Shown in pieces: positions 5,662 to 54,772 of a stretch of DNA of 64,000 nt; the first letter of the stretch is position 1, and every line of letters begins with the position of its first letter. Under the pieces are notes generated by a model. That model saw only the letters and a list, made by a program, of their open reading frames with translations. It did no database searches and was not told the DNA's origin. Origin of the DNA: a virus; the IMG/VR virus record IMGVR_UViG_3300045988_183134, positions 96,001 through 160,000 of that record; one strand, written 5' to 3'. Both the position numbers and the translations under genes were made by a program.

Positions 5662-7812
5662 ATGCTAAATAACAGCTATACAAAAACGAATACCATCTTC
5701 GGACAGGCGCTTGGATGCACTGCCCTTGATGACGCATTTGTAAAGCTGCTGAGTGATGTAAATGCCGATGGCGTGACTCAGTTCCTGATTCGGACAAATG
5801 GCGAAGAGAAAATGAAGACCGTTGCCCAAATCAATTCTGAGTCTCTGGAAGCGGGTGTTCGTGAGCGCATCTTTGATAAAGTCAGCCCGAAATATGGGAC
5901 CCCGACTTATTGGGATACCTCTACCAACATCTACTTCTCCATCAATACGTTCCATCCTCAGAAATCTCTGCGCGGAAAAGGTATCCGTCGTAAGGCGGAT
6001 GTCGAAAAGCTGCGCGCTCTGTTCTTTGACATTGATTGCCACGGCGAAAACGCACCAGCTGACATCAGCGACCGCATCGGTGAACTTGTACTGGATGCCG
6101 TGAATCATCATGAGATTCCGGACTGTGCAGTTTCTAACAGCGGCCGTGGTGTTGGCTTGTTTGTGTTTCTTGAACCCTGCAACCCAAACAATCTCTCTTA
6201 CGGCTTGGCCTACAGCGGCGTACATAGAGCAATTTCTCTCAAGCTGAATGAGTTGATTGAGAAGGCCCAGTTCACGGCAAATGTTGAGCTGGATAAGGCG
6301 GTTCATGAAACCAACCGCGTTGCTCGTCTGCCTGGTACTTACAACACCAAGGCAAAACGCTGCTGCCATTGTATTCGGGTCCCTGAAGGAAAGCCCTTCA
6401 ACCTGCTGAAGCTCGCCGACCAGTATGAAGTCCCTTATCGGTTTGCTGATGAGAAAGTTGCTCCGTCTGACGCGAATTTCAACAAGACTGAGGACGAAAT
6501 CCTTGACTGGGCTAAAAAGCGCTTCGCGGCAATGTGCATGCGCTATCCGCATCTTCTTGAAGTTCTGAACAATTACAAGAAGAAGGAAGAACGGAAAGCA
6601 AACTTCGTCTGCCGCTTTGAGCTGGCGCTTCGTTACCTTCAGGCAAATCCGTGTGGTGAAGGAAACCGCCACAACACCCTCTTGGCTGTACTTTCCACCT
6701 GCTATGACCGTGGCGGTCATCCGGATATGGATAAGGCACAGCTCATCAACCGCACTTTTTCTCAGCCACTTTCTGACAAGGAAGTTGCGCATCTCGTTTC
6801 CACCTGCAAATACCCTTGCAAGAACTCGACGATTGAAGCACTCTCCGGCATTCCCGCAAGTGCTCTCAAGAATCCCAAAGCTAAGGCGGAAGGGAAGAAG
6901 AACGAAAGCGAATCTAAGCCAAAGCGTTACGAAAAAGGCGAAATTCCGCCTCCGATTGCAAGCTCCAAGGCTGACCGTTACATGCTCGGTGTTCTCATCA
7001 ACCACGGCATCATTCCCGACCTCCGCATCCGGAACCATCGTCAGAAGTACGAGGCTCAGGAACGCCGGAAACAGCGCATGGTCATCTATGACCGTATCCC
7101 GGAACTCTATGCTTCCGGAATGTCCGTTCGTGCCATTGCAAAGGAACTGAAAATCTCGGTTCCCACTGTATATGAGCAGGCTAAAGTGCGTGGTCTTGAT
7201 ATCGTGGAGAAGGAACAGCAGGCATTCCGCGTCAAGAACCTGACAGCTCAGCGACTCGTTGAGATGGGATATCAGAAGCAGAAAGTTGCTGAACTGATGG
7301 GCGTTAACCGGAACACGGTGTTCAACGCTCTGAACCGGACTTTTGATTCTGTGTCTGAAGAAGACCTTATGCTCATTGACAAGGCGGTTAATAAGCTCAT
7401 TGGTCGTGTCGAGGTTATCGTGGAGACTCCCGAACCACAGACGGCTGACGAGCTGGAAACGGCAAAGCCGCAGGAAGCTAATGAAACTACTGTGACTGCT
7501 GAATCCGCTGAAACTGCTGAGACGGTTGCGACCGCCAAGGCTGCGGACAGTACCGAGACCGTCACTACCGAGAAGGAGTGTTCTTCTAAGGATGACAACA
7601 AGCCAGACGACAATGTACCTTTTGCTCCATTCAGTGATGCGTACAATCAGCTGTGCTTTGAACCTCAATCCCACAAAGGTTGGCACTCCGTCAAGGATGC
7701 GTTGAACAACTACGCGACCAGCTGCTGCTCTGCGATAAGTCAGCTCTGGGATGGCGTTGGCAAAGTTCAAAGGCACTTTGACTACGGTCGAGCGCAGCAA
7801 GCCGCAACCTGA
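5662..7812 (+). CDS. replication initiator, primase-polymerase-like core with a PriCT-1-like motif and C-terminal HTH modules
   Basis: Motifs LFFDIDCHGENA, RVARLPGTYNTKAKR and GEGNRHNTLLAVLSTCYDRG. Two HTH-like stretches are SVRAIAKELKISVPTVYEQAK and KVAELMGVNRNTVFNAL. It has an acidic AETAET-rich tail, and an iteron region follows. Confidence 0.8.
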   Translation: MLNNSYTKTNTIFGQALGCTALDDAFVKLLSDVNADGVTQFLIRTNGEEKMKTVAQINSESLEAGVRERIFDKVSPKYGTPTYWDTSTNIYFSINTFHPQKSLRGKGIRRKADVEKLRALFFDIDCHGENAPADISDRIGELVLDAVNHHEIPDCAVSNSGRGVGLFVFLEPCNPNNLSYGLAYSGVHRAISLKLNELIEKAQFTANVELDKAVHETNRVARLPGTYNTKAKRCCHCIRVPEGKPFNLLKLADQYEVPYRFADEKVAPSDANFNKTEDEILDWAKKRFAAMCMRYPHLLEVLNNYKKKEERKANFVCRFELALRYLQANPCGEGNRHNTLLAVLSTCYDRGGHPDMDKAQLINRTFSQPLSDKEVAHLVSTCKYPCKNSTIEALSGIPASALKNPKAKAEGKKNESESKPKRYEKGEIPPPIASSKADRYMLGVLINHGIIPDLRIRNHRQKYEAQERRKQRMVIYDRIPELYASGMSVRAIAKELKISVPTVYEQAKVRGLDIVEKEQQAFRVKNLTAQRLVEMGYQKQKVAELMGVNRNTVFNALNRTFDSVSEEDLMLIDKAVNKLIGRVEVIVETPEPQTADELETAKPQEANETTVTAESAETAETVATAKAADSTETVTTEKECSSKDDNKPDDNVPFAPFSDAYNQLCFEPQSHKGWHSVKDALNNYATSCCSAISQLWDGVGKVQRHFDYGRAQQAAT

Positions 7813-7924
7813 ACCTTTTTAGTACCTTCACAATTTGATACTATCTCTTTTGCGCGAATCGAACCTTAAAAAGCTATATGCTGGAAGTCATTTCTAATTG
7901 AACCTGTATCTCTGGTCGGCAAAC

Positions 7925-8276
7925 GGACACACTCATTCATGAGCGAGAACACAAGTTTGCCGGGTTGATGTGCAGGATTTGAAGCGAATCTCTTCCTTTT
8001 GTGCAAAGTTCAATTCACTATTGACAGTCCCGGTGAGGCAAAATTTAGACTCACACGTTCGAGAAGGACACGCCCATTTATGAGTGAGAACAAAATTCCC
8101 GAACAGGCTGCGGCTCAGGAGTCACGCTCGCAATGCCGGGATGCTGGTAGAGGATTTCACGGACCACAAATGCTGGCAAACGCTACAGTATTTTCGCATT
8201 CATGCTGTTGTTTCAAAACCAAAACCACAGGATAAGTGTATCCTTTCGGAGGACACGCCCGCTTGCGAGTGAGAAC
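7925..8276 (+). repeat. three 26-bp direct repeats (candidate iterons)
   Basis: GGACACactcattcatGAGcGAGAAC at 7925-7950, GGACACgcccatttatGAGtGAGAAC at 8066-8091 and GGACACgcccgcttgcGAGtGAGAAC at 8251-8276. Confidence 0.7.
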
Positions 8277-8578
8277 GAAATCTAAAGGAATCTGACACAA
8301 ATCCCACCCTTTTGGGGCTGACAGTTGAACTGCGGACGGATGAAGTGGCCCACGTGGCGGCCATGACGGCTTTTCCGACTTAAAAATTTATAGTCGGCTG
8401 GACTGGTAATAGGAGTTCAGGAGCCCGATTTCTCCTGAAAAACGGACCCTGCCTAAGAATGTCAAACGAGTTGGCAATGTTCTTCAGGCTTTTGTTCGCG
8501 TCCCCTTAGTAGAACTCTATATATTATATATAAAGGGCATTGATAAGTAAGAGAGACTACTAGATTTGAACTGAGAAG

Positions 8579-40754: not shown

Positions 40755-40813
40755 CCCTATGATTATTACCGGCTTTGGAAAAGCACTAAGATAAAAGCTA
40801 GAAAGTGATAAAA

Positions 40814-41389
40814 ATGCTAAACCTTTTACATAATAAGCCCCAGCTGCACCTGTTTGCACCTGAACCGTTGTCCGTGACGGTCCTTTCGAGACAGGATACT
40901 GAAGAACAGGCTTCGACATTTGGTTTCAATGACTTCGTTGTGAGCATCGGGAATCCCGAACAAGCTGAGCTTCATTTCCCGTGCCCGTCTCTTCACCTGC
41001 ATTTCTTCGACAAGGAAGACGAGCGGTGCATCACAGAGGAACAAGCAGAGGCTCTTGCGGCGTTTGTCCGAAAAGAAATCGGACTTGGCCGTCATCATTT
41101 CATTGTTCATTGCAACCAGGGGATATCTCGAAGTGCGGGTGCTGCAGCAGCGTTCCTACGAGCGTTTGGGTTTGATGAAGGAATCATCCTGGATGATGGC
41201 CGATACTGCATCAATGGTTGGTGCTATCTCCATGTATGCCGTGCGTTTGGCTTGAAGGTTTCTGAGGAAGAAGCGACCGCTGCAAGGCTCCGGAGCAGAC
41301 GGGCATATCTGCTGACCTGGTCCGTGGTAGGCGACGAAGAGGAAACGAATGATTCTGAAGATACAACAACAGATGTAGATTTGACTTGA
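40814..41389 (+). CDS. Cys-based (PTP-loop) phosphatase-like protein
   Basis: ORF 40805..41389 with CX5R(S) loop FIVHCNQGISRSAGAA and an acidic tail. Confidence 0.6.
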   Translation: MLNLLHNKPQLHLFAPEPLSVTVLSRQDTEEQASTFGFNDFVVSIGNPEQAELHFPCPSLHLHFFDKEDERCITEEQAEALAAFVRKEIGLGRHHFIVHCNQGISRSAGAAAAFLRAFGFDEGIILDDGRYCINGWCYLHVCRAFGLKVSEEEATAARLRSRRAYLLTWSVVGDEEETNDSEDTTTDVDLT

Positions 41390-41868: not shown

Positions 41869-42240
41869 TCAGACGTGCAATTTTTCCTTGAGCCCTTCCT
41901 GAAGTACCTGCGAAAAATCGATGTTTTCTTTTTCAGCAAGCTCATTGAGCCAGCAGGGGATTGCAATGCTCTTCTGAACCATACGTTGTTGCTCCTCAAG
42001 AGACACATCAACGAGTGTGACGATTTGTCCGGATTTAGCAGCTATGCCGTTGGTCGAGAATGGCTTCGGTATTGACTTTTCTGCGTTTTCTTCGGAAAAA
42101 GCCCACATGCAAATGGCGTTTTTCGCGGCGCTAATGGCGTCGGATTGCTGCTCACCTTTAACAGTTAGGTTGAAGTCTGGAATGTATGCTGTGTATCCTT
42201 CTTCTGTAGAAGTCAATACGATGGGGTAGGCTGTCTTCAT
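41869..42240 (-). CDS. hicB: HicB-family antitoxin-like protein
   Basis: ORF 41869..42426. ATG 42240 gives MKTAYPIVLTSTEEGYTAYIPDFNLTVKGEQQSDAISAAKNAI...SIPKP plus the C-terminal KSIAIPCWLNELAEKENIDFSQVLQEGLKEKL. Confidence 0.65.
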   Translation of the reverse strand: MKTAYPIVLTSTEEGYTAYIPDFNLTVKGEQQSDAISAAKNAICMWAFSEENAEKSIPKPFSTNGIAAKSGQIVTLVDVSLEEQQRMVQKSIAIPCWLNELAEKENIDFSQVLQEGLKEKLHV

Positions 42241-42292
42241 ATATACCTTTAATTCAAATAATTCAATCGATTGGACGTTCTGAAACTGATAT

Positions 42293-43003
42293 TTAGCGGA
42301 TAATATAGTCTCTAATGTGGCGGACAGTTTCTGGATGTTTCTCCAAATGGTCACACTGTTGTGCGAGGAGACAGGCAAAAACGAAGCGCGGGTCCGAATG
42401 AGGCCAAATAATGTTGCCTTTTTCATCTGAAAAGTAAAAGTCTATGGTGCTGTACAGAGGAGACGTTGCGGGAAGTGGTATGATTGACCCGTTGAAATCA
42501 ATTTCAAAGATAGAATTCGTCGCCTGAGCTGCGGCAACATGATGACGATGGTTAGTCACTACCACTAAGTTGAGCTCCGGATAATATTTGCCCTTAGGAA
42601 TCTCCTCAGCCAAATTAAAACCCTCCTGCTCAATATCTTTCATTGCGTCAATCAATTTGCCTGTGGTGTCAGGAAATACTATGATATGGTTTTTACTTGC
42701 TGAAAAGTGCCCTTTCGTTGAATTCATTTCAAATGCAGGAGGGAGCTTTACCAGTTCTTGAAGTTCGGTGAGATATTGAGAATTCGTGCGGTAGGCGTAA
42801 AAGCCTGCCATTTCATGAAGCAGGCTGTCAATGTAGAAGCGACCATACAAGATTCTTTCGTCTACAGGCATTGTATCGTCGTCCATCATTGCAATTGTTG
42901 TTGCAGCATCTCCGAGCCAAGAATTGTTGCGTAGAGCTTTTTCAATGTCAACAACAGGGTCGTGATAGTTTGGAAGATATTTGAAAATCTCAGTGTTATT
43001 CAA
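42293..43003 (-). CDS. hypothetical protein (236 aa), middle gene of the HicB-like operon
   Basis: ORF from the track. It overlaps the upstream gene by 8 nt. Confidence 0.65.
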   Translation of the reverse strand: MNNTEIFKYLPNYHDPVVDIEKALRNNSWLGDAATTIAMMDDDTMPVDERILYGRFYIDSLLHEMAGFYAYRTNSQYLTELQELVKLPPAFEMNSTKGHFSASKNHIIVFPDTTGKLIDAMKDIEQEGFNLAEEIPKGKYYPELNLVVVTNHRHHVAAAQATNSIFEIDFNGSIIPLPATSPLYSTIDFYFSDEKGNIIWPHSDPRFVFACLLAQQCDHLEKHPETVRHIRDYIIR

Positions 43004-43358
43004 TGTTAAGGACCTCCAATTCTTGATTTAACGTGTCCAAAATAATGGGGACGCAGTATGCGTTTAGTGCTCTCTCACTACCAAAACTGATGTAGTTCAG
43101 TGCTGAGATGAGCTTGCCACATCCTCCACGATAGTCTCGCTTCTTCATCTTTTGCTTGAATGCATAAAGGGATTCGATGTACTTCATGTTTGTGGCGACG
43201 CGATAAGTGGTCAATTCAGGGGTGGACTCATTCATGCGCTTGCGGCATTCGATGAGTGCTGCCAGGAAGTCGTTGGTTCTGTAGGCAGCGTCCAGAGGCT
43301 CCATGATATAGGCGTGAATAGGGTCGCTAATGCCTTTTACAATATTGTAGTTGTCCAT
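42996..43358 (-). CDS. hypothetical protein (120 aa), first gene of the HicB-like operon
   Basis: ORF 42996..43403. ATG 43358 follows AAGGAG. Confidence 0.6.
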   Translation of the reverse strand: MDNYNIVKGISDPIHAYIMEPLDAAYRTNDFLAALIECRKRMNESTPELTTYRVATNMKYIESLYAFKQKMKKRDYRGGCGKLISALNYISFGSERALNAYCVPIILDTLNQELEVLNIE

Positions 43359-43444
43359 GGCAAATATCTCCTTTGTATTGAATCTACGTACAATTCTACG
43401 CAAATCGCAATAAAAAGGAACACGCTATGACATAAACTACCATA

Positions 43445-43489: not shown

Positions 43490-43531
43490 CTTGTTTACAA
43501 ATTGACAGTTTCATCGTATAATGTAAACAAG
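43490..43531 (+). promoter_or_regulatory. promoter embedded in a 10-bp perfect inverted repeat (autoregulation operator candidate)
   Basis: CTTGTTTACA...TGTAAACAAG flanks TTTACA-17 nt-TATAAT, just upstream of the XRE-type gene. Confidence 0.55.
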
Positions 43532-43546
43532 AAGGGGAGGACTGTC

Positions 43547-44566
43547 ATGAAAATAGGCAAGAGCATCCGATACTTTCGTTCCCAGAAAGGCGTGTCTCAG
43601 CAATGGCTGGCTGATGCCATCGGCATAAGCAAAATGAGCATTTCGTATTTTGAGAGTGACAAGCGCCGCCCGGACATTGCGACTGTCAAGCGCATCTGTT
43701 CGGCGCTGGATGTGTCTTTGGGCAAATTCATGGCGTTCAGTGACGGTGTTACCCTCTCTGATGGCTCTTTCGAGAAAACGGATGAACTGTCAGCAGCTCA
43801 GAAAAACGCCATCCTCGCACAGATTCGCTATGCAGTACAACGATACTGTGATGCGTGTGCTTGCGCAAACGTGGATTGCAGCGAGTGTGCGCTGCCAAAA
43901 GATAAAGTGCCGATGCTTGATAGTGCAGCAGATGCTGCCGTCTATATGCGTGAAGCGTTTGGCCTTCCTGTGAATGGTCCTATCGGCAATCTCACGCGGG
44001 TTCTCGAAAGCAAAGGCGTCTGCGTTGCCATAGTAAAGCAAGAGGATTCCGGAGTGCCCATCGAAAACTTTTCCGGGTATCATGCCGTATCAAACAAAGG
44101 CTTTCGCCTTATCGCTTTTAATGAGGAATTGACTTACGGCTACCAACGCATGACCATTGCGAAAGAAACTGCACGCTCACTCTTCTCTAACGCGAGCGAA
44201 CGGCAAATCAGCAGCGCAGCAAGACATTTCCTGCTTCCGAGTTCTGACTTGGTACGAGAAATCGGAGAGAAACGGCCAAATATCAGCTTCAAAGAAATAC
44301 AGCTTGTAGGAGAAGAATACGGCGTGTCTGACCAGTGCGTGGTATTGCGAGCAAGGGAAGAAGGTATCATCACCCGCGAAACATATAGCCGTATCCAGAA
44401 CGGAAAGCACTATCCAGCGGATGCGTATAAGAACGATGAGCAGCCTGTGAGATTACTGCAATTGGTATGTAGAGCATATACCGACAATCTCATTGGTATC
44501 TCTAAGGCCGCTGAGCTGCTAAACACCAATACAAGCTATGCGACAGAGCTGTGCGAAGGCAAATAG
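43547..44566 (+). CDS. XRE-family HTH fused to a degenerate ImmA/IrrE (M78)-like domain
   Basis: ORF 43502..44566. ATG 43547 follows GGGGAGG. The HTH is QKGVSQQWLADAIGISKMSISYFESDKRRP. The position of HExxH reads IAKETARSLF, and ARHFLLPSSDL follows. Confidence 0.65.
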   Translation: MKIGKSIRYFRSQKGVSQQWLADAIGISKMSISYFESDKRRPDIATVKRICSALDVSLGKFMAFSDGVTLSDGSFEKTDELSAAQKNAILAQIRYAVQRYCDACACANVDCSECALPKDKVPMLDSAADAAVYMREAFGLPVNGPIGNLTRVLESKGVCVAIVKQEDSGVPIENFSGYHAVSNKGFRLIAFNEELTYGYQRMTIAKETARSLFSNASERQISSAARHFLLPSSDLVREIGEKRPNISFKEIQLVGEEYGVSDQCVVLRAREEGIITRETYSRIQNGKHYPADAYKNDEQPVRLLQLVCRAYTDNLIGISKAAELLNTNTSYATELCEGK

Positions 44567-44647
44567 TAAAATTCATGGACAACACTTATAAATTGAAGTA
44601 TACTTTTGTTAAGGCAAATGCTCTTGTAAAGTGAGGTGTGATTTCGC

Positions 44648-45739
44648 GTGCGATTTTTGTTGATGAATAAAGATACCAAGTGGCTCTTGTTTGACTGTTA
44701 TGAGGACGAGTTTGGCTTTACGGCTGGCAAAGAAATCGAATGGTATACTTCGTTCAGACCGATTCAATACAACAATATTGGTGACTTCCTTGATGCACGC
44801 AAAGCGCCTAAGCATAGAAAGCACATCGCTGAGCTTCTGAAAAAGTACGGTTGTGAATCCACTGAAAATTTTTTGCGATTAACGCATGCACTGTCACTCA
44901 ATGATACTTTCTGGGTAAAAGAGCCAGAAAGCCCTTTGACATGGAACGAAGTTTCCTTATACAGAAACGAATTTGATGAACTGGTTTCTAACGCGGCCTT
45001 TGATGGAATTATATCCTCTACCACTCTTTCTTCGACATCCCCTGAATTCGGGACAGATGGTGCTTATGCAAAGTGCTGGCAACGTGAAAACGGCACGGTC
45101 TATCTGTATAAAAGCGGCAGCGACACTTATGAAATCGAACCCTTGTCCGAATTTCTTGCGTCACAGGTAGCTGATATACTTTGCCATAACCACGTCGAGT
45201 ATGGCCTTGCCTTTTATCATAGACGACTGGCATCAAAGTGCAAGCTGTTTACCAGTGAACAATTCGGTTTGGCTAAAATGTCGGCACTTCCAGTTACTAA
45301 TCGTAAAAATCCCGCTGCCTTCCTAAAATTTGCTGAGCAATATGGTAGTGAAGACTTAATGCGCAGGATGTTCATTTTGGATGCTCTTATTCTCAACATC
45401 GACCGTCATTTAGGTAATGTCGGATTTCTTTTCGATAATGATACAATGCAAATTACCGAAATGGCTCCCATTTACGACAACAATCGCAGCCTACTGTTTC
45501 AATTCGATACAGAAACCATCGAAAACAACCCGGAATGGTGCATATCAAAGTGTGAGCCAAGAATAGGTGAAGATTTCATTAAGACCTCACAAGCAGTTCT
45601 TACCGATGAATTGAGAGTGGAATTAAAAAACATGAATGGCTTTGAATTTCATGCACCGAAAGATATTGGCGTTCCTATGGATAGGCTGGTGGCGTTGAGC
45701 CGAATCTTAAATATACAACTGAACAAAATCTTACAATAA
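44648..45739 (+). CDS. HipA-like Ser/Thr kinase
   Basis: Motifs are LDALILNIDRHLGNVGFLF and MAPIYDNNRSL. Start is GTG 44648 (after GAGGTG) or ATG 44663. Confidence 0.7.
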   Translation: MRFLLMNKDTKWLLFDCYEDEFGFTAGKEIEWYTSFRPIQYNNIGDFLDARKAPKHRKHIAELLKKYGCESTENFLRLTHALSLNDTFWVKEPESPLTWNEVSLYRNEFDELVSNAAFDGIISSTTLSSTSPEFGTDGAYAKCWQRENGTVYLYKSGSDTYEIEPLSEFLASQVADILCHNHVEYGLAFYHRRLASKCKLFTSEQFGLAKMSALPVTNRKNPAAFLKFAEQYGSEDLMRRMFILDALILNIDRHLGNVGFLFDNDTMQITEMAPIYDNNRSLLFQFDTETIENNPEWCISKCEPRIGEDFIKTSQAVLTDELRVELKNMNGFEFHAPKDIGVPMDRLVALSRILNIQLNKILQ

Positions 45740-45741
45740 CA

Positions 45742-45778
45742 AAGGGGAGTCGCGATTCACGACTCCCCTTCTTGTTTT
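45742..45778 (+). terminator. intrinsic terminator
   Basis: aaggggagtcg-cgattca-cgactcccctt followed by cttgtttt. Confidence 0.7.
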
Positions 45779-45936
45779 GTCGAAGTGAGTGTATAAAAAA
45801 TCAGCTTGAACGCTGAAATTGTGTTGGCAATTGGCCAAAAGCACTAAATTGATAGCATAAAATCAAAATTTGCGATAAAATCAATTGAATTTCCTTAATT
45901 TGCAGCGTATACTATTAGAAGGAAGGGAGTAGTATT

Positions 45937-47235
45937 ATGCTGATTGAGTTTACTGTAAAAAATTATCGGTCTTTTCGAGACGAAGCAGCTCTCTCGATGG
46001 AAGCAACGGGAGCAAGCACGCTGAAAAGTGTGCTCATTCCATATGGCGGAATGCGGATTCTGCCGGGTGCTGCCATTTACGGGAAGAACGGTGGCGGTAA
46101 GAGCAATGTTATCCGAGCTTTTTGGCTTTCGGTTCAATTCATCAGAAACGCACAAAAGACACAGCATGAGAAAGCAGCTATCCCCGTTGTTCCGTTTGCA
46201 TTGAATGACTACTCGGCATCTGAGCCGACAGAGTTTTCGTTTGTATATACCTTGGATGGAATCAGGTATTGGTATGCCTTTTCTGCCACAAAAGAAAAGG
46301 TATATGCTGAGTCGTTGTATCATGCACCGAAAGGGCAGAAGGCACTGGTTTTTGCTAGAGAAGGGCAGGAATTCACCTTTACCGAAGAGAAGGCTCGTAG
46401 AAATCTGATTAGTCAGGTTGTTGCCGAAAATCAACTGTTCTTTTCTGTAGCATGTACCATGAACGACGTTGCCTGCTCCAAAGCTATGACTTGGTTCCGG
46501 GAGAAAATCTATTTTTCAAGAGACTATTCGGATATTCCCCGGCAGCTGCTTGAATATTCGAACGACTCTAATATGCTGAAAGCGATTTCCGATTATGCGA
46601 AGGCTGCAGATGTTGGTATCGAAGATATGAAATTCGAAATCAATAGTAAAGAAATTAACGAAGAAGCTGATTTGCCTGCAAACATTCCCGAAGAAGTTAA
46701 AGCTGCACTTGTACAGTTCATGCATGTGCTTTCGGAAACCTCTAACAATTCGGAAACACACCTCAAGATGGGGCAGGTTAACGCAACATCCATGCATCAA
46801 GGCCAAAACAAGGACGGAACAAGCCATATGTTTTCGATGGAGCTGGCAGACGAGTCTGATGGCACAAGAAAACTGATGGCCATTGCTCCTGCAATTGAGT
46901 CCGTGCTGTCAAAGGGCGGCCTTTTGCTGGTAGATGAAATCGAAAAAGAACTGCATCCTGCTCTGGTAGAGCTTATTGTTGCCAAATTCCAGAGCAAAAA
47001 GACAAACCCGAATGAAGCACAAATTGTCTTTACGACACACAACACCGACCTGTTGAGTATGGAGCTGCTGCGTAAAGACCAACTCTACTTTGTTGATAAG
47101 AACAAAGATGATGGTGCTTCAGAACTCTACAGCATCAGCGATTTTTCCACTCGCACGACCGAAAATGTTCGCAAGGGCTATCTCCTCGGAAAATATGGCG
47201 CGGCTCCCAATGTCGAAATTGAGGAGGTTGAATAA
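45937..47235 (+). CDS. AAA_15/21-type (ABC/SMC-like) ATPase of the kind found in abortive-infection/defence pairs
   Basis: Motifs are MLIEFTVKNYRSFRDE, Walker A GKNGGGKSNV and Walker B LLLVDEIEKELHP, plus TTHN. Confidence 0.7.
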   Translation: MLIEFTVKNYRSFRDEAALSMEATGASTLKSVLIPYGGMRILPGAAIYGKNGGGKSNVIRAFWLSVQFIRNAQKTQHEKAAIPVVPFALNDYSASEPTEFSFVYTLDGIRYWYAFSATKEKVYAESLYHAPKGQKALVFAREGQEFTFTEEKARRNLISQVVAENQLFFSVACTMNDVACSKAMTWFREKIYFSRDYSDIPRQLLEYSNDSNMLKAISDYAKAADVGIEDMKFEINSKEINEEADLPANIPEEVKAALVQFMHVLSETSNNSETHLKMGQVNATSMHQGQNKDGTSHMFSMELADESDGTRKLMAIAPAIESVLSKGGLLLVDEIEKELHPALVELIVAKFQSKKTNPNEAQIVFTTHNTDLLSMELLRKDQLYFVDKNKDDGASELYSISDFSTRTTENVRKGYLLGKYGAAPNVEIEEVE

Positions 47236-47764
47236 TGGCTTGCAAGCTGAAGAAATCCAAGGTCAGTCTAATGAGTGTGACGATTCGTCCGGGCTTTGCG
47301 ACGATTCCGTTTGCCTAAAATGGTTTTGGAATGGGCTTTTCTGCATTTTCTTCAGAGAGAGCCCACAAATAGACAGCTTTTTTTGCAGGATATCGAGCGT
47401 GACGATGTCCCCAAAGTCATCACAAAGTTTCTGCAGGGATTCATTTGATTCAGCCTGAAGAGCACTGCGCAATGTTTGGAGCTGCCCACTGAATACGGCG
47501 TACAAAAACAATGGTTCTCGCAACTTTGGAAAATCGCCGCAACAGGAAGCAAGCCTTTTTATGCTAAGGGTGCTTTCTCCCGAAAGCTCTTTCACAAAAC
47601 CCGCGCCAAGGAAGCCCACTGCGTGAGCGGTGGGAGGAATTGGTGCATGAGTTTTTAAGAAAGACGAATGTGTACAATCTGTAAATAAGAAAGCTACTTG
47701 ATTTCTTTTTGCATCAAAAAATATTATAATACCGATATAATCAATCAAAGAAAGGAGGGCTATT

Positions 47765-49504
47765 ATGGCTTTCGGAAACAAGAACAGTACGCCGTCGTTT
47801 GCGTTAACTCTTCCTATGAAAGTAACCGAACAGGATGAAATTTTTCTTTCCAAAAAGTTTCGCGTTGGATGTACGATTTACAACCAAATGGTTAAGAAAA
47901 CCACAAAAATGTGGCATCAGCTGCGCAAGACGCGAGAATACAAAAATCTTATAAAAGCCATAAAAGCCGCTCCTGTCAACAGTGATGAACGGAAAGCACT
48001 GTTGATACAGCGTTCCAATTTGATTAAGCAAGCAAGCTTTTCAGAGGGAGCGTTCCATAAGCTGGTCGTGCCTTACCAGAAAGCGTACAACGTAAATTGC
48101 GATGTCGCTCAAAAAGTGGCATCCGCTGTCTGGAAAGCGTGGGATGACTTCTTTTATGGAAAGGGAAAAACCGTACACTATAAAAAGTTGAACGATTTTG
48201 TAACCCTTTCCGGGAAGAAAAATAACAGCGGTATATTCTTTCGTCCAGCAAATCATACGGTGAGTTCTTTGGAATCCGCTAAGCGAAAGGCGAAAAACTC
48301 TATCGAGAAAAGATACTTCGACGCATATAGAAAGCCAGATGCCAAAGAAGGTGAAGAGGTAGTTCTTCCCGATGAGGTGAAAGCGCAAATGGACAAAGAG
48401 GTCACCGACGCTACGGCGAAAATCAAACCGTGTATCGGAGAAGGCAATCTGCGCATCATTTACGAAAAGCACGAATTCCTTGTCAAATTGCGAAATCCCG
48501 ATATACAAACGGGATGGTATCAACAGGAAGCACTTAAATGCGGCGTCAAATATTGCCGGATTGTTCGTTCATGGGTCGGCACCAAGTGGAAGTATTACGC
48601 TCAACTTGTTCTGGAAGGTTATCCGCCCATCAAATGCGACAGCAACGGTGTTGTAAAGCACCATGTAAAGCAGGGGCGTGTCGGCATAGATATCGGCACA
48701 CAAACCATTGCTTTTTGCGGCAAAGATGTTTGCGACCTTCGTGTGCTTGCACCGTCTGCTATAGCGGAAACTCGCAATGGTCTTACAAAGGAAATCGCTC
48801 GCGTTATGCGGCAAATGGACCGTTCGCGCCGTGCGATGAATCCGCGGTATTATAACGAAAACGGAACCATTAAACGGCTGAAACGCAAGAACGGACATAA
48901 GCAAATTCGTCATTGGAACTACAGCAAGAACTATTATCGGCTGCTGTATAAACTGCGGGACTTGAACCGCAAACTTGCCGCTGTACGCAAGACGGAGCAT
49001 TATATTCTCGCTAATGAAATGCTGACATACGGCAACGAATTCGTAGTTGAAGATATGAACTACAAAGCTTTGCAAAAGCGCAGCAAGAAGACGAAAATCA
49101 ATCCCAAAACCGGTAGAGCGCATACCAAAAAGCGGTTCGGTAAAACTATCGGACGCTGCGCTCCTGCTTTGTTTATCACCATTTTGGGGCAAAAAGCAAG
49201 TCGATACGGCGGCAGCGTTATCAAGGTCAGCACCTTTGAAACAAAGGCTTCGCAGTTTGACCATACCGATGATAGCTACACCAAGAAGAAATTGTCCCAG
49301 CGTTTTGCTAAACTTTCAGACGGAACCGTTGTTCAGAGGGATTTGTATTCTGCATTCCTTTTATTGCACCTTAGAAAGAACCTTCAATCCTATAACAAGA
49401 AAACCATTAAGAAAGACTTCCCGCAGTTTAAGAAGCTGCACAACGAAACAAAAGAACGCTTGCAAAACAACCACGAGTGGTTGCCTGCAAGCGTAGGATT
49501 CTAA
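47765..49504 (+). CDS. large TnpB-like RuvC nuclease (579 aa) lacking zinc-finger cysteines
   Basis: RBS AAAGGAGGG. RuvC-like motifs are GRVGIDIGTQTIAF, FVVEDMNYKAL and VVQRDLYSAFLL. The usual CxxC...CxxC segment reads STFETKASQFDHTDDSYTKKKLSQRFAKLSDGTV, with no Cys. Confidence 0.7.
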   Translation: MAFGNKNSTPSFALTLPMKVTEQDEIFLSKKFRVGCTIYNQMVKKTTKMWHQLRKTREYKNLIKAIKAAPVNSDERKALLIQRSNLIKQASFSEGAFHKLVVPYQKAYNVNCDVAQKVASAVWKAWDDFFYGKGKTVHYKKLNDFVTLSGKKNNSGIFFRPANHTVSSLESAKRKAKNSIEKRYFDAYRKPDAKEGEEVVLPDEVKAQMDKEVTDATAKIKPCIGEGNLRIIYEKHEFLVKLRNPDIQTGWYQQEALKCGVKYCRIVRSWVGTKWKYYAQLVLEGYPPIKCDSNGVVKHHVKQGRVGIDIGTQTIAFCGKDVCDLRVLAPSAIAETRNGLTKEIARVMRQMDRSRRAMNPRYYNENGTIKRLKRKNGHKQIRHWNYSKNYYRLLYKLRDLNRKLAAVRKTEHYILANEMLTYGNEFVVEDMNYKALQKRSKKTKINPKTGRAHTKKRFGKTIGRCAPALFITILGQKASRYGGSVIKVSTFETKASQFDHTDDSYTKKKLSQRFAKLSDGTVVQRDLYSAFLLLHLRKNLQSYNKKTIKKDFPQFKKLHNETKERLQNNHEWLPASVGF

Positions 49505-49775
49505 AACACTTAAATTTTTTAAAGGGTTTCGACGTAGCCCTATTGATTGCCTTGATGTACTGCTTTCAGCAGCACTTGATAGGTGAAACCCTAATTTAGG
49601 GGATATCTACACTTTTTATGCTGGCTTTTCGGGCATTTTGCCCTGCCTTTAAGCTTCGCTTTGGGTAGTAAGTACATTGGTCTATCGAAAGATAGTGTAT
49701 CCGGCGGTTTTTGCTGTTGGAAAACCCTGTAACTGCATTGCGTCAGCATAGAATCCCTCTCCGTAAGGGGTGGGA
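49505..49775 (+). ncRNA. candidate omega/right-end RNA of the TnpB-like element
   Basis: Structured non-coding DNA lies between the stop codon and the right-end hairpin (gggtttc...gaaaccc, gcagcagcacttgat...). Confidence 0.3.
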
Positions 49776-49815
49776 GTACGTCAAATACTGGCGAAGAAAA
49801 CCTAAAAATGTCAGA

Positions 49816-51195
49816 TTACTTCTCATGGCTTTTCCTGATTCCAAAAACGTCATTTCCGTCCAGATAAATGAAAGGCTTTTCATGCTCGTTGAATCCGTTG
49901 ATGGCAACGAAACCGAGTTGCTTAACTTTGAGCTCTTTGATAGCCTCTACTTGCTGGGCCTCGTGATGAATCTCATCCAGAGTCATGGGCTGGGCATAGT
50001 ACTTTGCTTCGAAAATCTCATAGCCATCAGCAAACTCTAAAGCAACATCGAATTCACCGTTCGTGCGGTGGACTGGGTCATCGTAATAGTAGCTGCCAAT
50101 GTTGCGTACACCTTTCAACTTTCCAGAACGGACCTGCAAGCTGAAATAGTCACGGCAGATGCCTTCAAAACGTCGGGAGATGAAGTCTGTCAGAACGGGA
50201 CTGATGTACTCGTCATAGAATGCCTTGGCTCCTAGCACTTGGAGTGCGCTACTGTTCTTATATACAAAGGTGAAGTAGAATCTCAGAAGATTGTCGTTGA
50301 TTTCAAAAGCAGACTTTTTATTGTCGTTCAGCCTGTTAATGGGATTATTTCGGGAAAGAATCTCTAAGTCAAGCAGGGGCTTGATTTGCTTTGCGAGGTT
50401 GCCGGTCTTCCTCGCATCCAGTTTATCTTCGATTTCGGTATAGCGCTTCTTCCCATTTCCAATGACAGAAAAGATACGTTCTGCATTGATGCTTACCGAG
50501 TAGTCCGAAAGCAGCAGCTGGCTGGCATACAGATACACTGCGCTCGTAGGATTGAGAACGGTGTTGATAATATTTTCTCGGAGAGTGGCTTCAGGGTTTA
50601 GTGCTTGATTAACAAATGGGGAACCGCCAAAAACGGCATAATGGCCAACTTTGTCGTAGGGTGTTTTGTCAGGATAGAACTTGGCAGCATCCAGATAACT
50701 CAACTCATTTAACTTGATTGTGACAGCAAACCGACCATATAGAGCGTTCTTCTCTTGCAACGCATCCTTCATAATACCGATGTGAGAACCAGAAAGGATA
50801 AGTTCGATGTTAGAGAGTCGGTTGTCGATAATGCTCTGGAAGATGGAATCAACCGCAGCGGAGTCCGTCATGGATTTGAGATAGGGGTACTCATCGATGA
50901 CGACAACAATCTTTTGGGGCAGCGCATTGAGATAAGTGAATACATCCTGCAGCGTGCTAAAGCTCAGAGGCACAGGCAGAACCTTGGCACGGACAAGCTC
51001 CTGCACAAAGCCATTGATATTGTCCTGCATTATGCTTTTCAAGCACTCAAAGTACACCTTCTGATACTGGCAGCTCTCAAGTGCTTTTCGAATGAGAGTA
51101 GTCTTTCCAACGCGGCGCTTGCCGTAAACCATAATGGCCTTTCCGATATAATCTTCCTGCAAAAGAGCCAGCTCTTTCTCGCGGCCAATAAACAT
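49816..51195 (-). CDS. ATPase of the 'archaeal ATPase'/DUF234 type
   Basis: N-terminus is MFIGREKELALLQE, and Walker A is VYGKRRVGKTTLIRK. Length is 459 aa. Confidence 0.65.
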   Translation of the reverse strand: MFIGREKELALLQEDYIGKAIMVYGKRRVGKTTLIRKALESCQYQKVYFECLKSIMQDNINGFVQELVRAKVLPVPLSFSTLQDVFTYLNALPQKIVVVIDEYPYLKSMTDSAAVDSIFQSIIDNRLSNIELILSGSHIGIMKDALQEKNALYGRFAVTIKLNELSYLDAAKFYPDKTPYDKVGHYAVFGGSPFVNQALNPEATLRENIINTVLNPTSAVYLYASQLLLSDYSVSINAERIFSVIGNGKKRYTEIEDKLDARKTGNLAKQIKPLLDLEILSRNNPINRLNDNKKSAFEINDNLLRFYFTFVYKNSSALQVLGAKAFYDEYISPVLTDFISRRFEGICRDYFSLQVRSGKLKGVRNIGSYYYDDPVHRTNGEFDVALEFADGYEIFEAKYYAQPMTLDEIHHEAQQVEAIKELKVKQLGFVAINGFNEHEKPFIYLDGNDVFGIRKSHEK

Positions 51196-51558
51196 AGCAC
51201 ACCTCCAATAACACTGAAGCGAATTTCACTGAATTTATTTTCAATGTTATTTTACCATACGGACGCGCGAAAATCAAATGTTAATCCAGCTGAAACGAGC
51301 AGAGAAAAAGAGCAGGCTCATCTTTGACAATGAACCTGCTCTGAAAAGTATCAATAGCCTACCGAGCGACGCCAACATATGACGCTTGCCTCGAATATAG
51401 CACTTCGAAAGGACTTACTTTTGGTATAATTCTAGTGTATGATTCGTGCAAAGCAAAGGCAATACTGTTTTTGAAAAAAAGAAGCTCGAATTTCTTTGCT
51501 AAAATTATGTCTTTATGTTGTTTATACATTACGGTTGGTTGAAAACTCTACAAATATA

Positions 51559-51567
51559 TGGTACTAT
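51559..51567 (+). promoter_or_regulatory. extended -10 promoter (AAATATATGGTACTAT)
   Basis: caaatataTGGTACTAT, 33 nt upstream of ATG 51600. Confidence 0.5.
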
Positions 51568-51599
51568 ATTTATAGCAAATATAGACAGGATGAATAACA

Positions 51600-52061
51600 A
51601 TGAATGCACATTATCCAAGTGATTATCCAGATGGGTTTGAGGAAAAACTAATTGCTGCTGGTGCTAAAACGCAAACAATCACTCCCGTATACAGAATACT
51701 ATATGATGGTAAGCTGAACGCCTTCAACTTTGAGTCAACGTATATTAACTATAGGAGAAGACACAAAACACTTACTAAAAGGAAGTTACAGCACTTGGGG
51801 ACATATTCGACTTCCTGCTTTGCGGAACTCGATGACGTTGCATATACAATTCAATATTCAATGAAAAATCCGCCATTTGCGAAAATCTGTAAAGGCGTAA
51901 TTACACAAACTTCAGGTTACAGTCAAAGGACGGTGGATAGAGAGCCAGAAACAGAAAGCTCACATGTTGATTGGTGGATTTATTCTGATATTGACGTTAA
52001 TTCTGAAGTTCTCACTAATTTTTCTATCTGTTCTTTCGAGAAAGAAGGCGAGAAAGTATGA
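51600..52061 (+). CDS. 153-aa protein, first gene of the SecB-like operon (toxin candidate)
   Basis: ORF from the track. Its stop overlaps the next start (ATGA). No family recognised. Confidence 0.65.
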   Translation: MNAHYPSDYPDGFEEKLIAAGAKTQTITPVYRILYDGKLNAFNFESTYINYRRRHKTLTKRKLQHLGTYSTSCFAELDDVAYTIQYSMKNPPFAKICKGVITQTSGYSQRTVDREPETESSHVDWWIYSDIDVNSEVLTNFSICSFEKEGEKV

Positions 52062-52720
52062 GTTACAAAGGAGAACTGTTGTTCGAAGGGACAAAGTTCA
52101 AGTCTTATTTTAAGCAAGACTTAATAATTGAACAGACTTTTCTGGAATATGATGAGATTCCATTGCTGTGTGCGTGCCTGGACGAGGAGGGAAATCGCTA
52201 CTTTTGTAATTGTACCGAATTTCGCACATATGAAAAATGGGCTATATATCCGGTAAGTATTCTTCAACTTTTGAAGATGGTAAAAAATGAAGTTACTCCG
52301 GCTGATACTTTTGATGCTTCCACAGTTGTATATGTCTTTACAATCGATTGGGAAAACGAGAGTGAAAAGTTCGAAAAAAAGACAGTATCTGAGTTAACGA
52401 AATATGACAGATTGCCAGACAATATATATTTGACTTCGCATCCAAATCGACTCGAAAAATATGCAGATAGCCTTCAAACTGTTTACAAAGCTCAAACTGC
52501 GTTGTGCTGCAGTAAGCGTTACGTTGCCTGCTGTGTCCGAAGCGTTGACGTGACCAATGAACTCCTTAGTAGCCTTATATTGTCAAAGGCGAACTATCCG
52601 GTACGATTGAACGTAGAGATTAGTATTGGCAAAAACCATAGAGATATTCAACTGCAAGAAACAAACAACATCGACATTATACACATGACAAAATCGGATT
52701 ATGCATGTGTTAGCGTATGA
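52058..52720 (+). CDS. 220-aa protein, long paralog of 41406..41777 with a ~95-aa C-terminal extension (antitoxin candidate)
   Basis: Residues ~25-135 align with the 123-aa paralog (RYFCNCTEFRTY, KYDRLPDNIY, SHPNRLEKY). It has ATGA overlaps on both sides. Confidence 0.7.
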   Translation: MSYKGELLFEGTKFKSYFKQDLIIEQTFLEYDEIPLLCACLDEEGNRYFCNCTEFRTYEKWAIYPVSILQLLKMVKNEVTPADTFDASTVVYVFTIDWENESEKFEKKTVSELTKYDRLPDNIYLTSHPNRLEKYADSLQTVYKAQTALCCSKRYVACCVRSVDVTNELLSSLILSKANYPVRLNVEISIGKNHRDIQLQETNNIDIIHMTKSDYACVSV

Positions 52721-53154
52721 GGACGCGTAATTATATGGAACTCACCAAATTGGCTTTAATAAAAACTGTGATGCCATGTGTTAAATTGGAAATCGCAGAG
52801 CAAGCTTTACAAAATGAAAGCAATCCACGTGAACAACTTCATCAAAAAATCAATATACAGGGTGGCGTTGAAGACGAAGAGGAACCGTCAACCGTAAAAG
52901 TTAGAATTAAAATTTCTGTCTCTACAGACTCTGGGAATGTTGCTTTTGAAGCGTGCAGAGAAAGCACATTCCAAAATGAGTCTGGCGAAAAATGGAAAAA
53001 TCGCGAAGATGCTATGCAAGATGTCAAAAACACTGCTATCCCATTGGCATATGAAGATATGCAGCGATTTGTTGAAGAATTGTCCAAAAGTGCCGGGATT
53101 TCTCCGTTTCCAATCCCGGGCTATGATACTATCCAAAAGGATGAGAGTGAGTAA
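52717..53154 (+). CDS. SecB-like chaperone
   Basis: STVKVRIKISVSTDSGNVAFEACRESTF and NTAIPLAYEDMQRFVEELSKSAGISPFPIPGYD align by eye with E. coli SecB [29 protein letters not shown] and [31 protein letters not shown]. Confidence 0.55.
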   Translation: MRTRNYMELTKLALIKTVMPCVKLEIAEQALQNESNPREQLHQKINIQGGVEDEEEPSTVKVRIKISVSTDSGNVAFEACRESTFQNESGEKWKNREDAMQDVKNTAIPLAYEDMQRFVEELSKSAGISPFPIPGYDTIQKDESE

Positions 53155-53430
53155 AACGGGCTTTGACTGATGTTCACGCCTCGTAAGCTCAGAACGTGTA
53201 AAGCAATTCAAGAAAGTTATATCTCAAATATCGCAATAGCGTATAGGCTATACCAGCCTGTGCGCTTTCTTTTTGCCATATTTCGTCATAATCAATAAAA
53301 GCATTTATTGCTTTTTGTTAATCATGTAATTGACTTTGCAAAACAGTGTCGGTAAAATAAAGGTATTCGATAGACCGCATTAACAATCTGTGAACTTTTT
53401 GGGGTTCGTATTGTGCGATTGCCACATAAA

Positions 53431-53575: not shown

Positions 53576-54772
53576 TTGAATATGAAACGTAAGACTATCA
53601 TTTTAGCAGTGGTAGCAGCCGCTGCGATGGCGCTCAGCCTGGTAGGGTGCGGCGTGAAAATCACGAACATCGCGGTTCCGGAGTCTGCGATGGTGGAGAA
53701 GGGTGAAAGTATTACCCTGCCTGTTGTGTACGGCACCGACGATGCTCCGGCCGTAACTCCTGAGACTGCTGCAACCGGTGAAAGTGCTGCAACGGATGAG
53801 AAAGTAGCCAAGGCTGCCGAAAAGCTCACCATTGAGTGGACCTCCTCCGATGAGAGCGTTGCGACGGTCGATGCCACTGGCATGGTGGTTGCTGTCTCTG
53901 CAGGTGAAGCTGACATCACTGCAAGCGTCACGGATTCTGAGATGAGTGCTGTCTGCAAGGTTACGGTTAAAGTGGCCGCGAAAGACATCACCGTTCCCGA
54001 CAACCTTGACGTCAAGCTCAACGATGGAAACGAAACCACTGTCGAGACAACGGTAAGCCCGGCTGATGCCACCGATGTGAAGGTAAGTTACGCTTCTACT
54101 GATGAGGCAGTGGCCACCGTCGATAAAGACGGCAGGGTTCAGGTCTTGCAGCCTGGTGAATGCGACATCACCACGACCCTCATGCAGGATGGCGAAAAGG
54201 TCACCGAGAAGACGACTCATGTGAAAGCATTCTATGAGGTTGAAAGCATCACGCTCGATTCCAACGAAGGCAAGTTGACGGTCGGTAACTCTCACACCAT
54301 TAAGGCGATGGTTGCTCCCGAAGAGGTTGCCGCCGAAACTACCATCGAGTGGTCGTCCAGCAACGAGAAGGTCGCTACAGTCGATGAGAACGGTAAAGTC
54401 ACTGCAATTGCGGCCGGTGAGGCAACCATCACCGCAACTGCCGGTGAGGAAAGTGCCAACTACGAAGTGACGGTTGAACAGCCGAAGAAGGTCACGACCA
54501 GCAACAAGACTTATAAAAGCAGCAGTTCCAGCAACAGTTCTGCTGCTGTGACGCCTTCCAACCCGGCACCTGTTGCCCCGGCTCCCGCACAGCCTGACCC
54601 GGCACTGGCACAGCCTGACCCTCAGCCGGAACAGCCCGCGCAAGACTCTCAACCCAGCGGGGGCACTGATAACTCTGGCGGTAATAGTGAGGATGACTGG
54701 TGGCATGGTCCTGTTCTTTCTGCGCCGACTGATAACGGTTGCCCTCCTGAGGATGTTGGCATTCTTTGCTGA
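53576..54772 (+). CDS. lipoprotein with three or four Big_2-like Ig repeats and a Pro-rich tail
   Basis: Lipobox is ALSLVG|CGV. Repeats are ESVATVDATGMVVAVSAGEADITA, EAVATVDKDGRVQVLQPGECDIT and EKVATVDENGKVTAIAAGEATITA. The tail is PAPVAPAPAQPDPALAQPDPQPEQP. Confidence 0.8.
   Translation: MNMKRKTIILAVVAAAAMALSLVGCGVKITNIAVPESAMVEKGESITLPVVYGTDDAPAVTPETAATGESAATDEKVAKAAEKLTIEWTSSDESVATVDATGMVVAVSAGEADITASVTDSEMSAVCKVTVKVAAKDITVPDNLDVKLNDGNETTVETTVSPADATDVKVSYASTDEAVATVDKDGRVQVLQPGECDITTTLMQDGEKVTEKTTHVKAFYEVESITLDSNEGKLTVGNSHTIKAMVAPEEVAAETTIEWSSSNEKVATVDENGKVTAIAAGEATITATAGEESANYEVTVEQPKKVTTSNKTYKSSSSSNSSAAVTPSNPAPVAPAPAQPDPALAQPDPQPEQPAQDSQPSGGTDNSGGNSEDDWWHGPVLSAPTDNGCPPEDVGILC

Follow-up and report, generated by a model that had tools for sequence, protein, structure and literature searches.

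A candidate toxin-antitoxin-chaperone module with a divergent SecB-like protein and PD-T4-10-like partners in a mobile element of gut bacteria

Three short, overlapping genes at 51600-53154 of a 64,000-nucleotide stretch of viral DNA (positions 96,001 to 160,000 of IMG/VR record IMGVR_UViG_3300045988_183134; hereafter, the window) raise the question of whether they form a toxin-antitoxin-chaperone (TAC) module, that is, a toxin-antitoxin (TA) unit wired to a SecB-like chaperone and, if so, which of the products is the toxin. In the original prediction, made from the nucleotide sequence, the first gene (g1) was cast as the toxin, the second (g2) as an antitoxin with a C-terminal chaperone-addiction (ChAD) extension, and the third (g3) as the chaperone. 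The three open reading frames (ORFs) described there are present (Table 1), and so are the ATGA overlaps at both the g1/g2 and g2/g3 junctions that were said to couple their translation. The start of g3 more likely lies at 52735 than at 52717, judging from the sequence: the internal ATG is preceded by GAGGA 11 nucleotides upstream, and the corresponding 139-amino-acid (aa) form appears in public gene calls on 325 contigs, the 145-aa forms on a few. With this start, the g2 stop codon falls within the ribosome-binding region of g3, so that the coupling remains tight.

We conclude that the product of g3 is a divergent SecB-family protein, a divergent branch of the chaperone encoded by the gene family described below. 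The confident AlphaFold2 model (predicted local distance difference test score, pLDDT, 78.6; predicted template-modelling score, pTM, 0.76) consists of four antiparallel strands followed by a 30-residue helix, and the top 22 matches to this model in a Foldseek search of the PDB are all SecB-fold structures (5mtw, 1fx3, 1qyn, 1ozb, 2o2a, 2hng). The best of these is 5mtw, the Mycobacterium tuberculosis TAC chaperone Rv1957 with a ChAD peptide (E 9.7e-5); the list also contains the SecB proteins of Haemophilus influenzae and Escherichia coli (template-modelling score, TM, 0.52-0.60) and the SP1558 family, and other folds follow only at E ~0.1. A profile built exclusively from the third genes of distantly related loci aligns with g3 over its whole length (16.4 bits; E 1.2e-6 in a test on three sequences), and hhalign places the same profile on g3 at E 6e-4. 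Relatives of g3 share the C-terminal motif NAPxLLxxYxRPxxxxxT...LPxxNF, which presumably resembles the C-terminal segment of E. coli SecB. By contrast, BLASTP of g3 against an E. coli SecB sequence yielded nothing significant, and no match to PDB sequences was found at E<=10. Thus, the alignment by eye with E. coli SecB, on which the assignment originally relied, holds at the level of fold and family profile but not in pairwise BLASTP or Pfam comparison. Word-index searches with the three proteins g1-g3 brought up no homologues other than copies that were near-identical or frameshifted.

The trio is not peculiar to this element. A scan of metagenome contigs with the g1 pattern SH[VI]DWW[IL][YF] gave 219 confirmed g1 relatives, and 80 loci, mostly from the human gut, were kept. 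In about 30 non-redundant metagenomic loci, where g1 identity is 30-58%, a g1-like gene is followed by a g2-like gene and then by a third gene. The gene that overlaps or abuts g1 in these loci encodes a homologue of the g2 N-terminal domain (N-domain) in a protein of 175-292 aa (phmmer E 1e-6 to 1e-60), and the third gene encodes a protein of 117-164 aa. Pfam SecB (PF02556) matches 16 of 23 third-gene products (best E 1.3e-13), although not the window's g3 at E<=0.01, and the PADLOC profile PD-T4-9_C, which represents CmdC, also matches 16/23 (best E 1.6e-19). Because the gene order recurs and the third genes match SecB and CmdC, it is the three-gene architecture that defines the family. On sequence grounds, an operon beyond chance is confirmed by purifying selection on g1 and the g2 N-domain (ratio of nonsynonymous to synonymous substitution rates, dN/dS, 0.20 and 0.11, respectively) and by a gene order kept down to ~30% identity. 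Copies of intact g2 are spread over at least 1000 contigs, and the module is common in gut metagenomes. Pairs of genes encoding 188-aa and 128-aa proteins in related loci were considered as paralogs of the module and rejected.

Comparison of close relatives supports the view that the C-terminal tail of g2 and g3 were gained, lost and recombined together as one genetic unit, apart from g1 and the g2 N-domain. We compared 45 close loci (designated here by L numbers), which are not independent samples and come from metagenome assemblies, such that some of the frameshifts may be assembly errors. In L001-L004, neither g1 nor g3 is present, and g2 (88% nucleotide identity) is a 152-aa form whose codons 1-143 continue, in the same frame, into the final 9 codons of g3. 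Homology to the g3 end covers these codons, the stop and the bases that come next, so that this form is explained by an in-frame deletion of approximately 52486-53124. In a second deletion, 52507-52880, the tail is lost together with the 5' end of g3. In a comparison with L026/L028, nucleotide identity is 88-89% for g1 and the g2 N-domain (synonymous divergence, dS, 0.37-0.49; the dN/dS values above come from this comparison), whereas the tail is 96-97% and g3 98.6-99.5% identical (dS ~0.04); this jump in identity places a recombination breakpoint where the N-domain meets the tail.

The intact trio is found in the majority of the 45 close loci. The other arrangements are an intact g1 with the tail and g3 deleted (L023, L031), g1 deleted along with the promoter next to intact g2 and g3 (L008, L067, L072), both deletions at once (L005-7, L063, L065, L066, L068, L070) and loss of g1 with the 5' part of g2 (L096); other decayed versions carry a truncated g1 or insertion sequence (IS) insertions. 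Among these loci, none has an intact g1 but lacks the g2 N-domain, and none keeps g1 and the tail while g3 is lost. The 77-aa tail is missing in the paralog of g2 elsewhere in the window, in the 152-aa form and in a 158-aa form, none of which is accompanied by an intact chaperone, as the original prediction had it: the extension is found with the chaperone and not without it. Removal of the ChAD makes a TAC chaperone-independent, according to a preprint that cites earlier work for this (bioRxiv 10.1101/2024.02.24.581848), and by analogy, the set of variants, including L023 and L031, matches what chaperone-addiction logic would predict. The deletions 51295-51933 and 52507-52880 are found in every combination, and the backbones that carry them diverge by ~10% in sequence, which suggests that copies of the element residing together recombine frequently, rather than that each deletion arose independently several times. 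The possibility that the segment comprising the tail and g3 is an intron or another RNA element was discarded, given that it has no Rfam match at E<=1 and is protein-coding and conserved.

Neither partner of the chaperone had been recognized originally as a described toxin or antitoxin. This holds in part: the g2 N-domain is not wholly undescribed, being of the DUF6575 type and similar to PD-T4-10B, and the g1 family has only a weak match to PD-T4-10A. PD-T4-10 is a validated abortive-infection TA pair of E. coli ECOR65, in which the second protein, PD-T4-10B, is toxic alone, and the first, PD-T4-10A, counteracts its toxicity and proved impossible to delete; no function was predicted for either, and DUF6575 is listed among new defence domains (PMC9519451). 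The PD-T4-10 proteins (RCO36089.1, RCO36088.1) were compared with ours through PADLOC profiles. The PD-T4-10_B profile matches g2 of the window (E 8.8e-6, profile positions 5-110 of 353), 10 of 12 g2 relatives (best E 7.2e-9) and the consensus of the g2 family (E 5.8e-15, positions 13-129). Pfam PF20215 (DUF6575) matches 15 of 25 family members (best E 1.1e-9), the window's g2 not being one of them. Scans of genome collections for the g2 family and tblastn against plasmids and phages found nothing, and the family profile gave only noise against PDB sequences.

In contrast to the N-domain, the tails of the g2 family cannot be aligned between distant members and range from 33 to 202 aa. Their C-termini are recurrent: 11 of 30 proteins end in Ala-Ala, two in Val-Ala, and one each in Tyr-Ala and Gly-Ala. 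In CmdA and M. tuberculosis HigA1, such an Ala-Ala or Val-Ala terminus serves as the ClpXP degron (PMC11618068; bioRxiv 10.1101/2024.02.24.581848). The closest outgroups of the window's g2 end in ...YACV and ...CIYA. In its tail, 35 residues separate Y155 from Y190 and 25 separate Y190 from Y215, a spacing that recalls, but only suggestively, the ~30-residue aromatic spacing of the E. coli HigA ChAD; in TACs, it is by means of spaced aromatic residues that the ChAD binds the chaperone.

The g1 family consists of proteins of ~145 aa, with 116 relatives, mostly of 140-160 aa, retrieved by phmmer from 1.84 billion cluster representatives at E<=1e-3, and across loci g1 is better conserved than g2. 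Its near-invariant residues are R32, G37, F44, S70, S72, G99, G106, H122, D124, W125, W126 and F141, and, from the polar positions in this set and from the enzyme-like group R32, S70, S72, H122, D124, W125 and W126, g1 looks like an enzyme. Searches of 89 family members against Pfam and NCBIfam retrieved no informative family, and the g1-family profile found only noise among PDB sequences. PD-T4-10_A does not match g1 itself, but matches 4/89 family members at E<=0.01 and the family consensus at E 2.4e-4, a weak match that spans nearly the full length (positions 27-144 of 148). The g1 and g2 matches, weak to moderate in strength, each pick out the corresponding gene of the same pair, which is unlikely to be coincidence. 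A guess that g1 is an R-S-E ADP-ribosyltransferase (ART), from the motifs VYR and YSTS, was abandoned: there is no conserved ExE and no ART Pfam match in the 89 members, and CmdT, of the H-Y-E type, speaks further against it.

We favour the reading that g1-g2-g3 is a tripartite TAC module of a gut-bacterial mobile element, lodged in its variable defence region, with g1 as the toxin, g2 as the antitoxin and g3 as the chaperone, and put its probability at roughly 0.6 from sequence comparison, modelling and analogy. The TAC interpretation gains computational support from the SecB-fold model of g3, from the PF02556- and CmdC-like third genes of the relatives, and from the co-inheritance of tail and chaperone. 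In such a module, g3 would bind the poorly conserved tail of g2 and protect g2 from aggregation or proteolysis, and the folded, DUF6575-type N-domain of g2 would hold the small, enzyme-like g1 inactive. Titration of the chaperone, of the kind that CmdC and HigC undergo with phage structural proteins, could then lead to the loss of g2 and the release of g1, and the released g1 would arrest the cell, in abortive infection or addiction. By analogy with known TACs, several features favour g1 as the toxin: the toxin-antitoxin-chaperone gene order, the position of the variable tail and degron on g2, and the invariant residues and higher conservation of g1. The same assignment is favoured by the existence of N-domain-only proteins without a g1-like partner, and by a g2 sequence in which no conserved candidate toxin domain is apparent.

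Several observations weigh against this reading. The roles it assigns are plausible yet contested because those reported for PD-T4-10 are the opposite: g1 resembles the reported antitoxin, PD-T4-10A, and the g2 N-domain the reported toxin, PD-T4-10B. The AlphaFold2 model of g1 is unusable (pLDDT 30.6), and no toxin fold was recognised in g1. The decay variants are silent on which protein is toxic, because the g1 deletion takes the promoter too, and they are also compatible with reversed roles. The C-terminus of the window's g2, ...SDYACVSV, has no Ala-Ala; E. coli HigA is likewise without a C-terminal degron (bioRxiv 10.1101/2024.02.24.581848). As for g3, the Pfam search proposed as a test of the SecB assignment returned no PF02556 match at E<=1, and searches of NCBIfam, PADLOC and PHROGs gave no match. 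The fold check, which did single out SecB structures, relied on one confident model of five and on an alignment of four near-identical sequences, and the TM-scores against SecB are moderate (0.46-0.60 over 128-138 of 139 residues). Physical contact between the tail and g3, the identity of the toxic component, the trigger and the biochemical activity of g1, as well as toxicity and neutralisation as such, are what we infer from these comparisons.

Of the other explanations, the one that survives best, although we consider it unlikely, is that the roles are reversed as in PD-T4-10: g1 would be an antitoxin, possibly an enzymatic one, g2 would be toxic, and g3 would control the folding, activity or lifetime of the toxin. 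The antitoxin-first order, the commonest among type II TA systems, counts for this arrangement. It also draws on the cognate profile matches, those of the g2 N-domain to PD-T4-10_B (E 5.8e-15 for the consensus; 10/12 members) and of the g1 family to PD-T4-10_A, together with the behaviour of the pair in E. coli, where PD-T4-10B alone is toxic and PD-T4-10A neutralises and is undeletable (PMC9519451). However, just the first 110-130 of the 353 residues of PD-T4-10B are common to g2, and the rest, which may carry the toxicity, is missing here; the g2 tails are variable in both sequence and length, unlike a toxin domain. Moreover, N-domain-only proteins occur without a g1-like partner, namely the paralog within the window and the short forms behind an ATPase gene in L001-4, and a toxic N-domain would make these lethal. 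A degron and a chaperone-binding tail on the toxin also offer no obvious logic of activation, and in all described TACs the extension sits on the antitoxin (PMC9519451, PMC11618068).

A reading outside TA biology, in which g3 is a dedicated holdase or export chaperone that holds g2 unfolded before transfer or secretion, g2 could be an effector or anti-defence protein that the conjugative element delivers, and g1 is an accessory enzyme, strikes us as improbable. SecB is classically an export chaperone, the mobile element that carries the module also has sortase, PcfJ-like and large surface-protein genes, and the paralog of g2 adjoins a phosphatase-like gene weakly similar to the Swiss Army Knife and polymorphic-toxin phosphatases of Pfam. 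But the third genes of the relatives are nearest to a chaperone from a defence TAC, CmdC (best E 1.6e-19), the Ala-Ala C-termini point to regulated proteolysis and not to export, both partners belong to families with homology to an abortive-infection TA pair that has been validated (PMC9519451), and the genes adjoining the module are defence genes; inspection by eye, with no predictor run, turned up neither a signal peptide nor a secretion signal. That the locus is a decaying remnant, its three ORFs kept by linkage without a joint function, is very improbable: many decayed versions do circulate, with truncated g1, deletions of the tail and g3, or IS insertions, yet dN/dS is 0.1-0.2 for g1 and the g2 N-domain, the intact trio prevails among close relatives, the architecture is kept to ~30% identity, and intact g2 is present on at least 1000 contigs.

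Table 1. Features of the putative TAC module and of its surroundings, in window coordinates
Feature	Position	Strand	Basis or context
Promoter-like site, TTGAAA / 17-nt spacer / TACTAT with TG extension	51539-51567	+	Upstream of g1; consensus scan
g1, 153 aa, candidate toxin/effector	51600-52061	+	ORF, AGGA ribosome-binding site
g2, 220 aa	52058-52720	+	
g2 N-domain, aa 1-143, DUF6575-type, candidate toxin-neutralising core	52058-52486	+	Homology to PD-T4-10B N-terminus
g2 C-terminal tail, aa 144-220 and stop, candidate ChAD extension	52487-52720	+	Missing in short forms and paralog
g3, divergent SecB-like chaperone, 139 aa (145 aa from 52717)	52735-53154 (or from 52717)	+	AlphaFold2/Foldseek fold match, family profile
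Terminator-like hairpin, 12-bp stem, then T-run TTCTTTTT	53238-53266	+	Consensus match only
Stand-alone g2 N-domain paralog, 123 aa	41406-41777	+	No tail, outside operon
Phosphatase-like gene upstream of paralog, P-loop HCNQGISRS (HCxxGxxR)	40805-41389	+	Weak profile matches
RmrA-like helix-turn-helix-peptidase gene	43502-44566		Defence island
PDC-M03A-like gene	44648-45739		Defence island, after RmrA-like gene
AbiLi/AriA-like AAA ATPase	45937-47235		Defence island
PDC-S27 / DUF234 ATPase	49816-51195	-	Defence island

The operon segment has a G+C content of 38-39%, compared with 43-51% in the flanks. Promoter-like sites across the region are not more numerous than expected from shuffled sequence, and the one upstream of g1 is a consensus match only; it falls inside the segment 51295-51933 that is deleted in decayed variants.

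The paralogy between g2 and the stand-alone gene was correctly surmised (44% identity over 119 aa, E 2e-34; E 3.6e-35 with the g2-family profile). The paralog was said to be 97 aa shorter at the C-terminus; the total is right, but the difference is divided between ~21 residues at the N-terminus and ~76 at the C-terminus. As originally noted, no chaperone gene comes after the paralog, the next gene being an ORF for a HicB-like antitoxin on the minus strand (41869-42426; E 1.2e-4, under the Pfam cutoff). A 236-aa ORF overlaps the upstream end of the HicB-like ORF, and a 135-aa ORF lies beyond (42293-43403, minus strand); these have no clear family (DUF6710 at E 0.14). The gene upstream of the paralog does encode a phosphatase-like protein, as proposed: next to its HCxxGxxR motif, it has weak matches to dual-specificity phosphatases at ~1e-3 (DSPc, PTP-SAK and Tc-R-P between E 1e-3 and 5e-2) and a match to phrog_5614 at 1.2e-8. 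Compared with the g1 family, it is unrelated. The pair is kept in L002/L003 (L002 2703-3669) and could be a further two-gene TA-like or anti-defence pair; the modular toxin swapping read into it originally would be one way to account for the different upstream genes.

Order and content of the genes in the defence island (43502-51195) are reshuffled among related contigs. In L001-L004 (~6689-8459), a short DUF6575 gene follows the AbiLi-like ATPase gene after 58 bp, an operon-like spacing that may reflect either a joint function or a recombination scar. An ORF of 579 aa at 47765-49504 is taken to be TnpB-like; its homologues in L001 and L008 directly follow a Y1_Tnp (IS200/IS605) transposase gene. 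The 117-bp segment 47267-47383 is 95% identical to the sequence just upstream of the L001 Y1_Tnp transposase gene and is possibly an IS end. Related elements truncate g1 in L008 and adjoin the remnant in L097. Downstream of the module, genes with an RRXRR domain are inserted in L009 (10028-11290, also with HNH) and L013 (7671-9209); the combination of RRXRR and HNH is one that we take to be typical of IscB-type nucleases. Also downstream, genes for Big_2-repeat surface proteins (53576-54772 and in related loci) are present in one to two copies whose sequence varies by contig, and are followed by a gene of ~2970 aa.

If the favoured reading is correct, the locus and its ~30 diverse relatives, common in human-gut metagenomes, would add a fifth, unrelated TA unit to those known to be wired to SecB-like chaperones (HigBA, MqsRA, HicAB and CmdTA). 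By its structure and architecture, as far as these were compared, the module works like a TAC, and its TA unit is unrelated to these four; the chaperone-dependent logic itself has already been described. Among anti-phage sensors, TACs form an emerging class with the SecB-like chaperone as the phage detector, and this module would connect a CmdC-type chaperone, that of PD-T4-9, with the PD-T4-10 pair, itself of unknown mechanism. The natural deletion and recombination variants, in which the candidate ChAD and the chaperone travel as a cassette, offer a test bed for modularity, and the g1 family, with its near-invariant R, S-x-S and H-x-D-W-W, a concrete candidate enzyme. More tentatively, and we regard this as doubtful, modules of the DUF6575/PD-T4-10 type could constitute an unrecognised chaperone-gated family in which the addicted protein is the homologue of the toxic PD-T4-10B. 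This could be the first TAC in which a SecB-like chaperone holds the toxin instead of the antitoxin, a new control logic; or else the published PD-T4-10 roles would need revisiting, with PD-T4-10B, for example, as an antitoxin-like scaffold whose long C-terminus depends on a host chaperone. Under either option, DUF6575 would be a promiscuous partner domain for unrelated enzymes (the g1 family, the phosphatase-like protein and the ATPase), and the module offers a route to settling the puzzle of the PD-T4-10 roles. In the literature covered, which is incomplete, no paper was found that connects SecB-like chaperones with PD-T4-10 or with DUF6575.

Compared with known systems, g3 shares with housekeeping SecB (PF02556) the predicted fold and topology of four antiparallel strands and a long helix, but stays under the Pfam threshold and sits in a TA-like operon of a mobile element rather than in a secB housekeeping locus. 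The module resembles HigBA1-Rv1957 of M. tuberculosis and HigBAC and MqsRAC of E. coli in having three coupled genes, the last of which encodes a SecB-fold chaperone, with Rv1957 as the best match, and in the C-terminal extension of the middle protein, which is missing in chaperone-less homologues and is transferable together with the chaperone. It differs from these and from HicAB in its TA unit, as g1 and g2 are unrelated to HigB/HigA, MqsR/MqsA and HicA/HicB and have no such match in Pfam or PADLOC, and in a g3 too divergent for PF02556. With CmdTAC (PD-T4-9) of E. coli, the family has in common CmdC-like chaperones (16/23), many middle proteins that end in Ala-Ala as CmdA does, and defence contexts on mobile elements. 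The TA units are distinct, in that CmdT is an H-Y-E ADP-ribosyltransferase and CmdA consists of two helices and a disordered tail (PMC11618068), and PADLOC scans of g1, g2 and their families matched no PD-T4-9 toxin or antitoxin model.

Finally, PD-T4-10B, at 353 aa, has ~220 further residues that neither the g2 tails nor the SecB-like genes match. Lengths that add up had prompted the idea of PD-T4-10B as a g2-like protein fused to a SecB-like one, which was rejected at the sensitivity of these searches: no third gene matches PD-T4-10_B at E<=0.1, and the g2 tails are unmatched past position 130. The likeness to PD-T4-10 lies in the g2 N-domain, which corresponds to the first ~130 residues of PD-T4-10B, in the g1 family, which matches PD-T4-10A weakly over nearly its full length, in the same gene order and in the overlap of the ORFs. 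Whereas PD-T4-10 consists of two genes and is without a chaperone, the locus described here, like ~30 related ones, has three.

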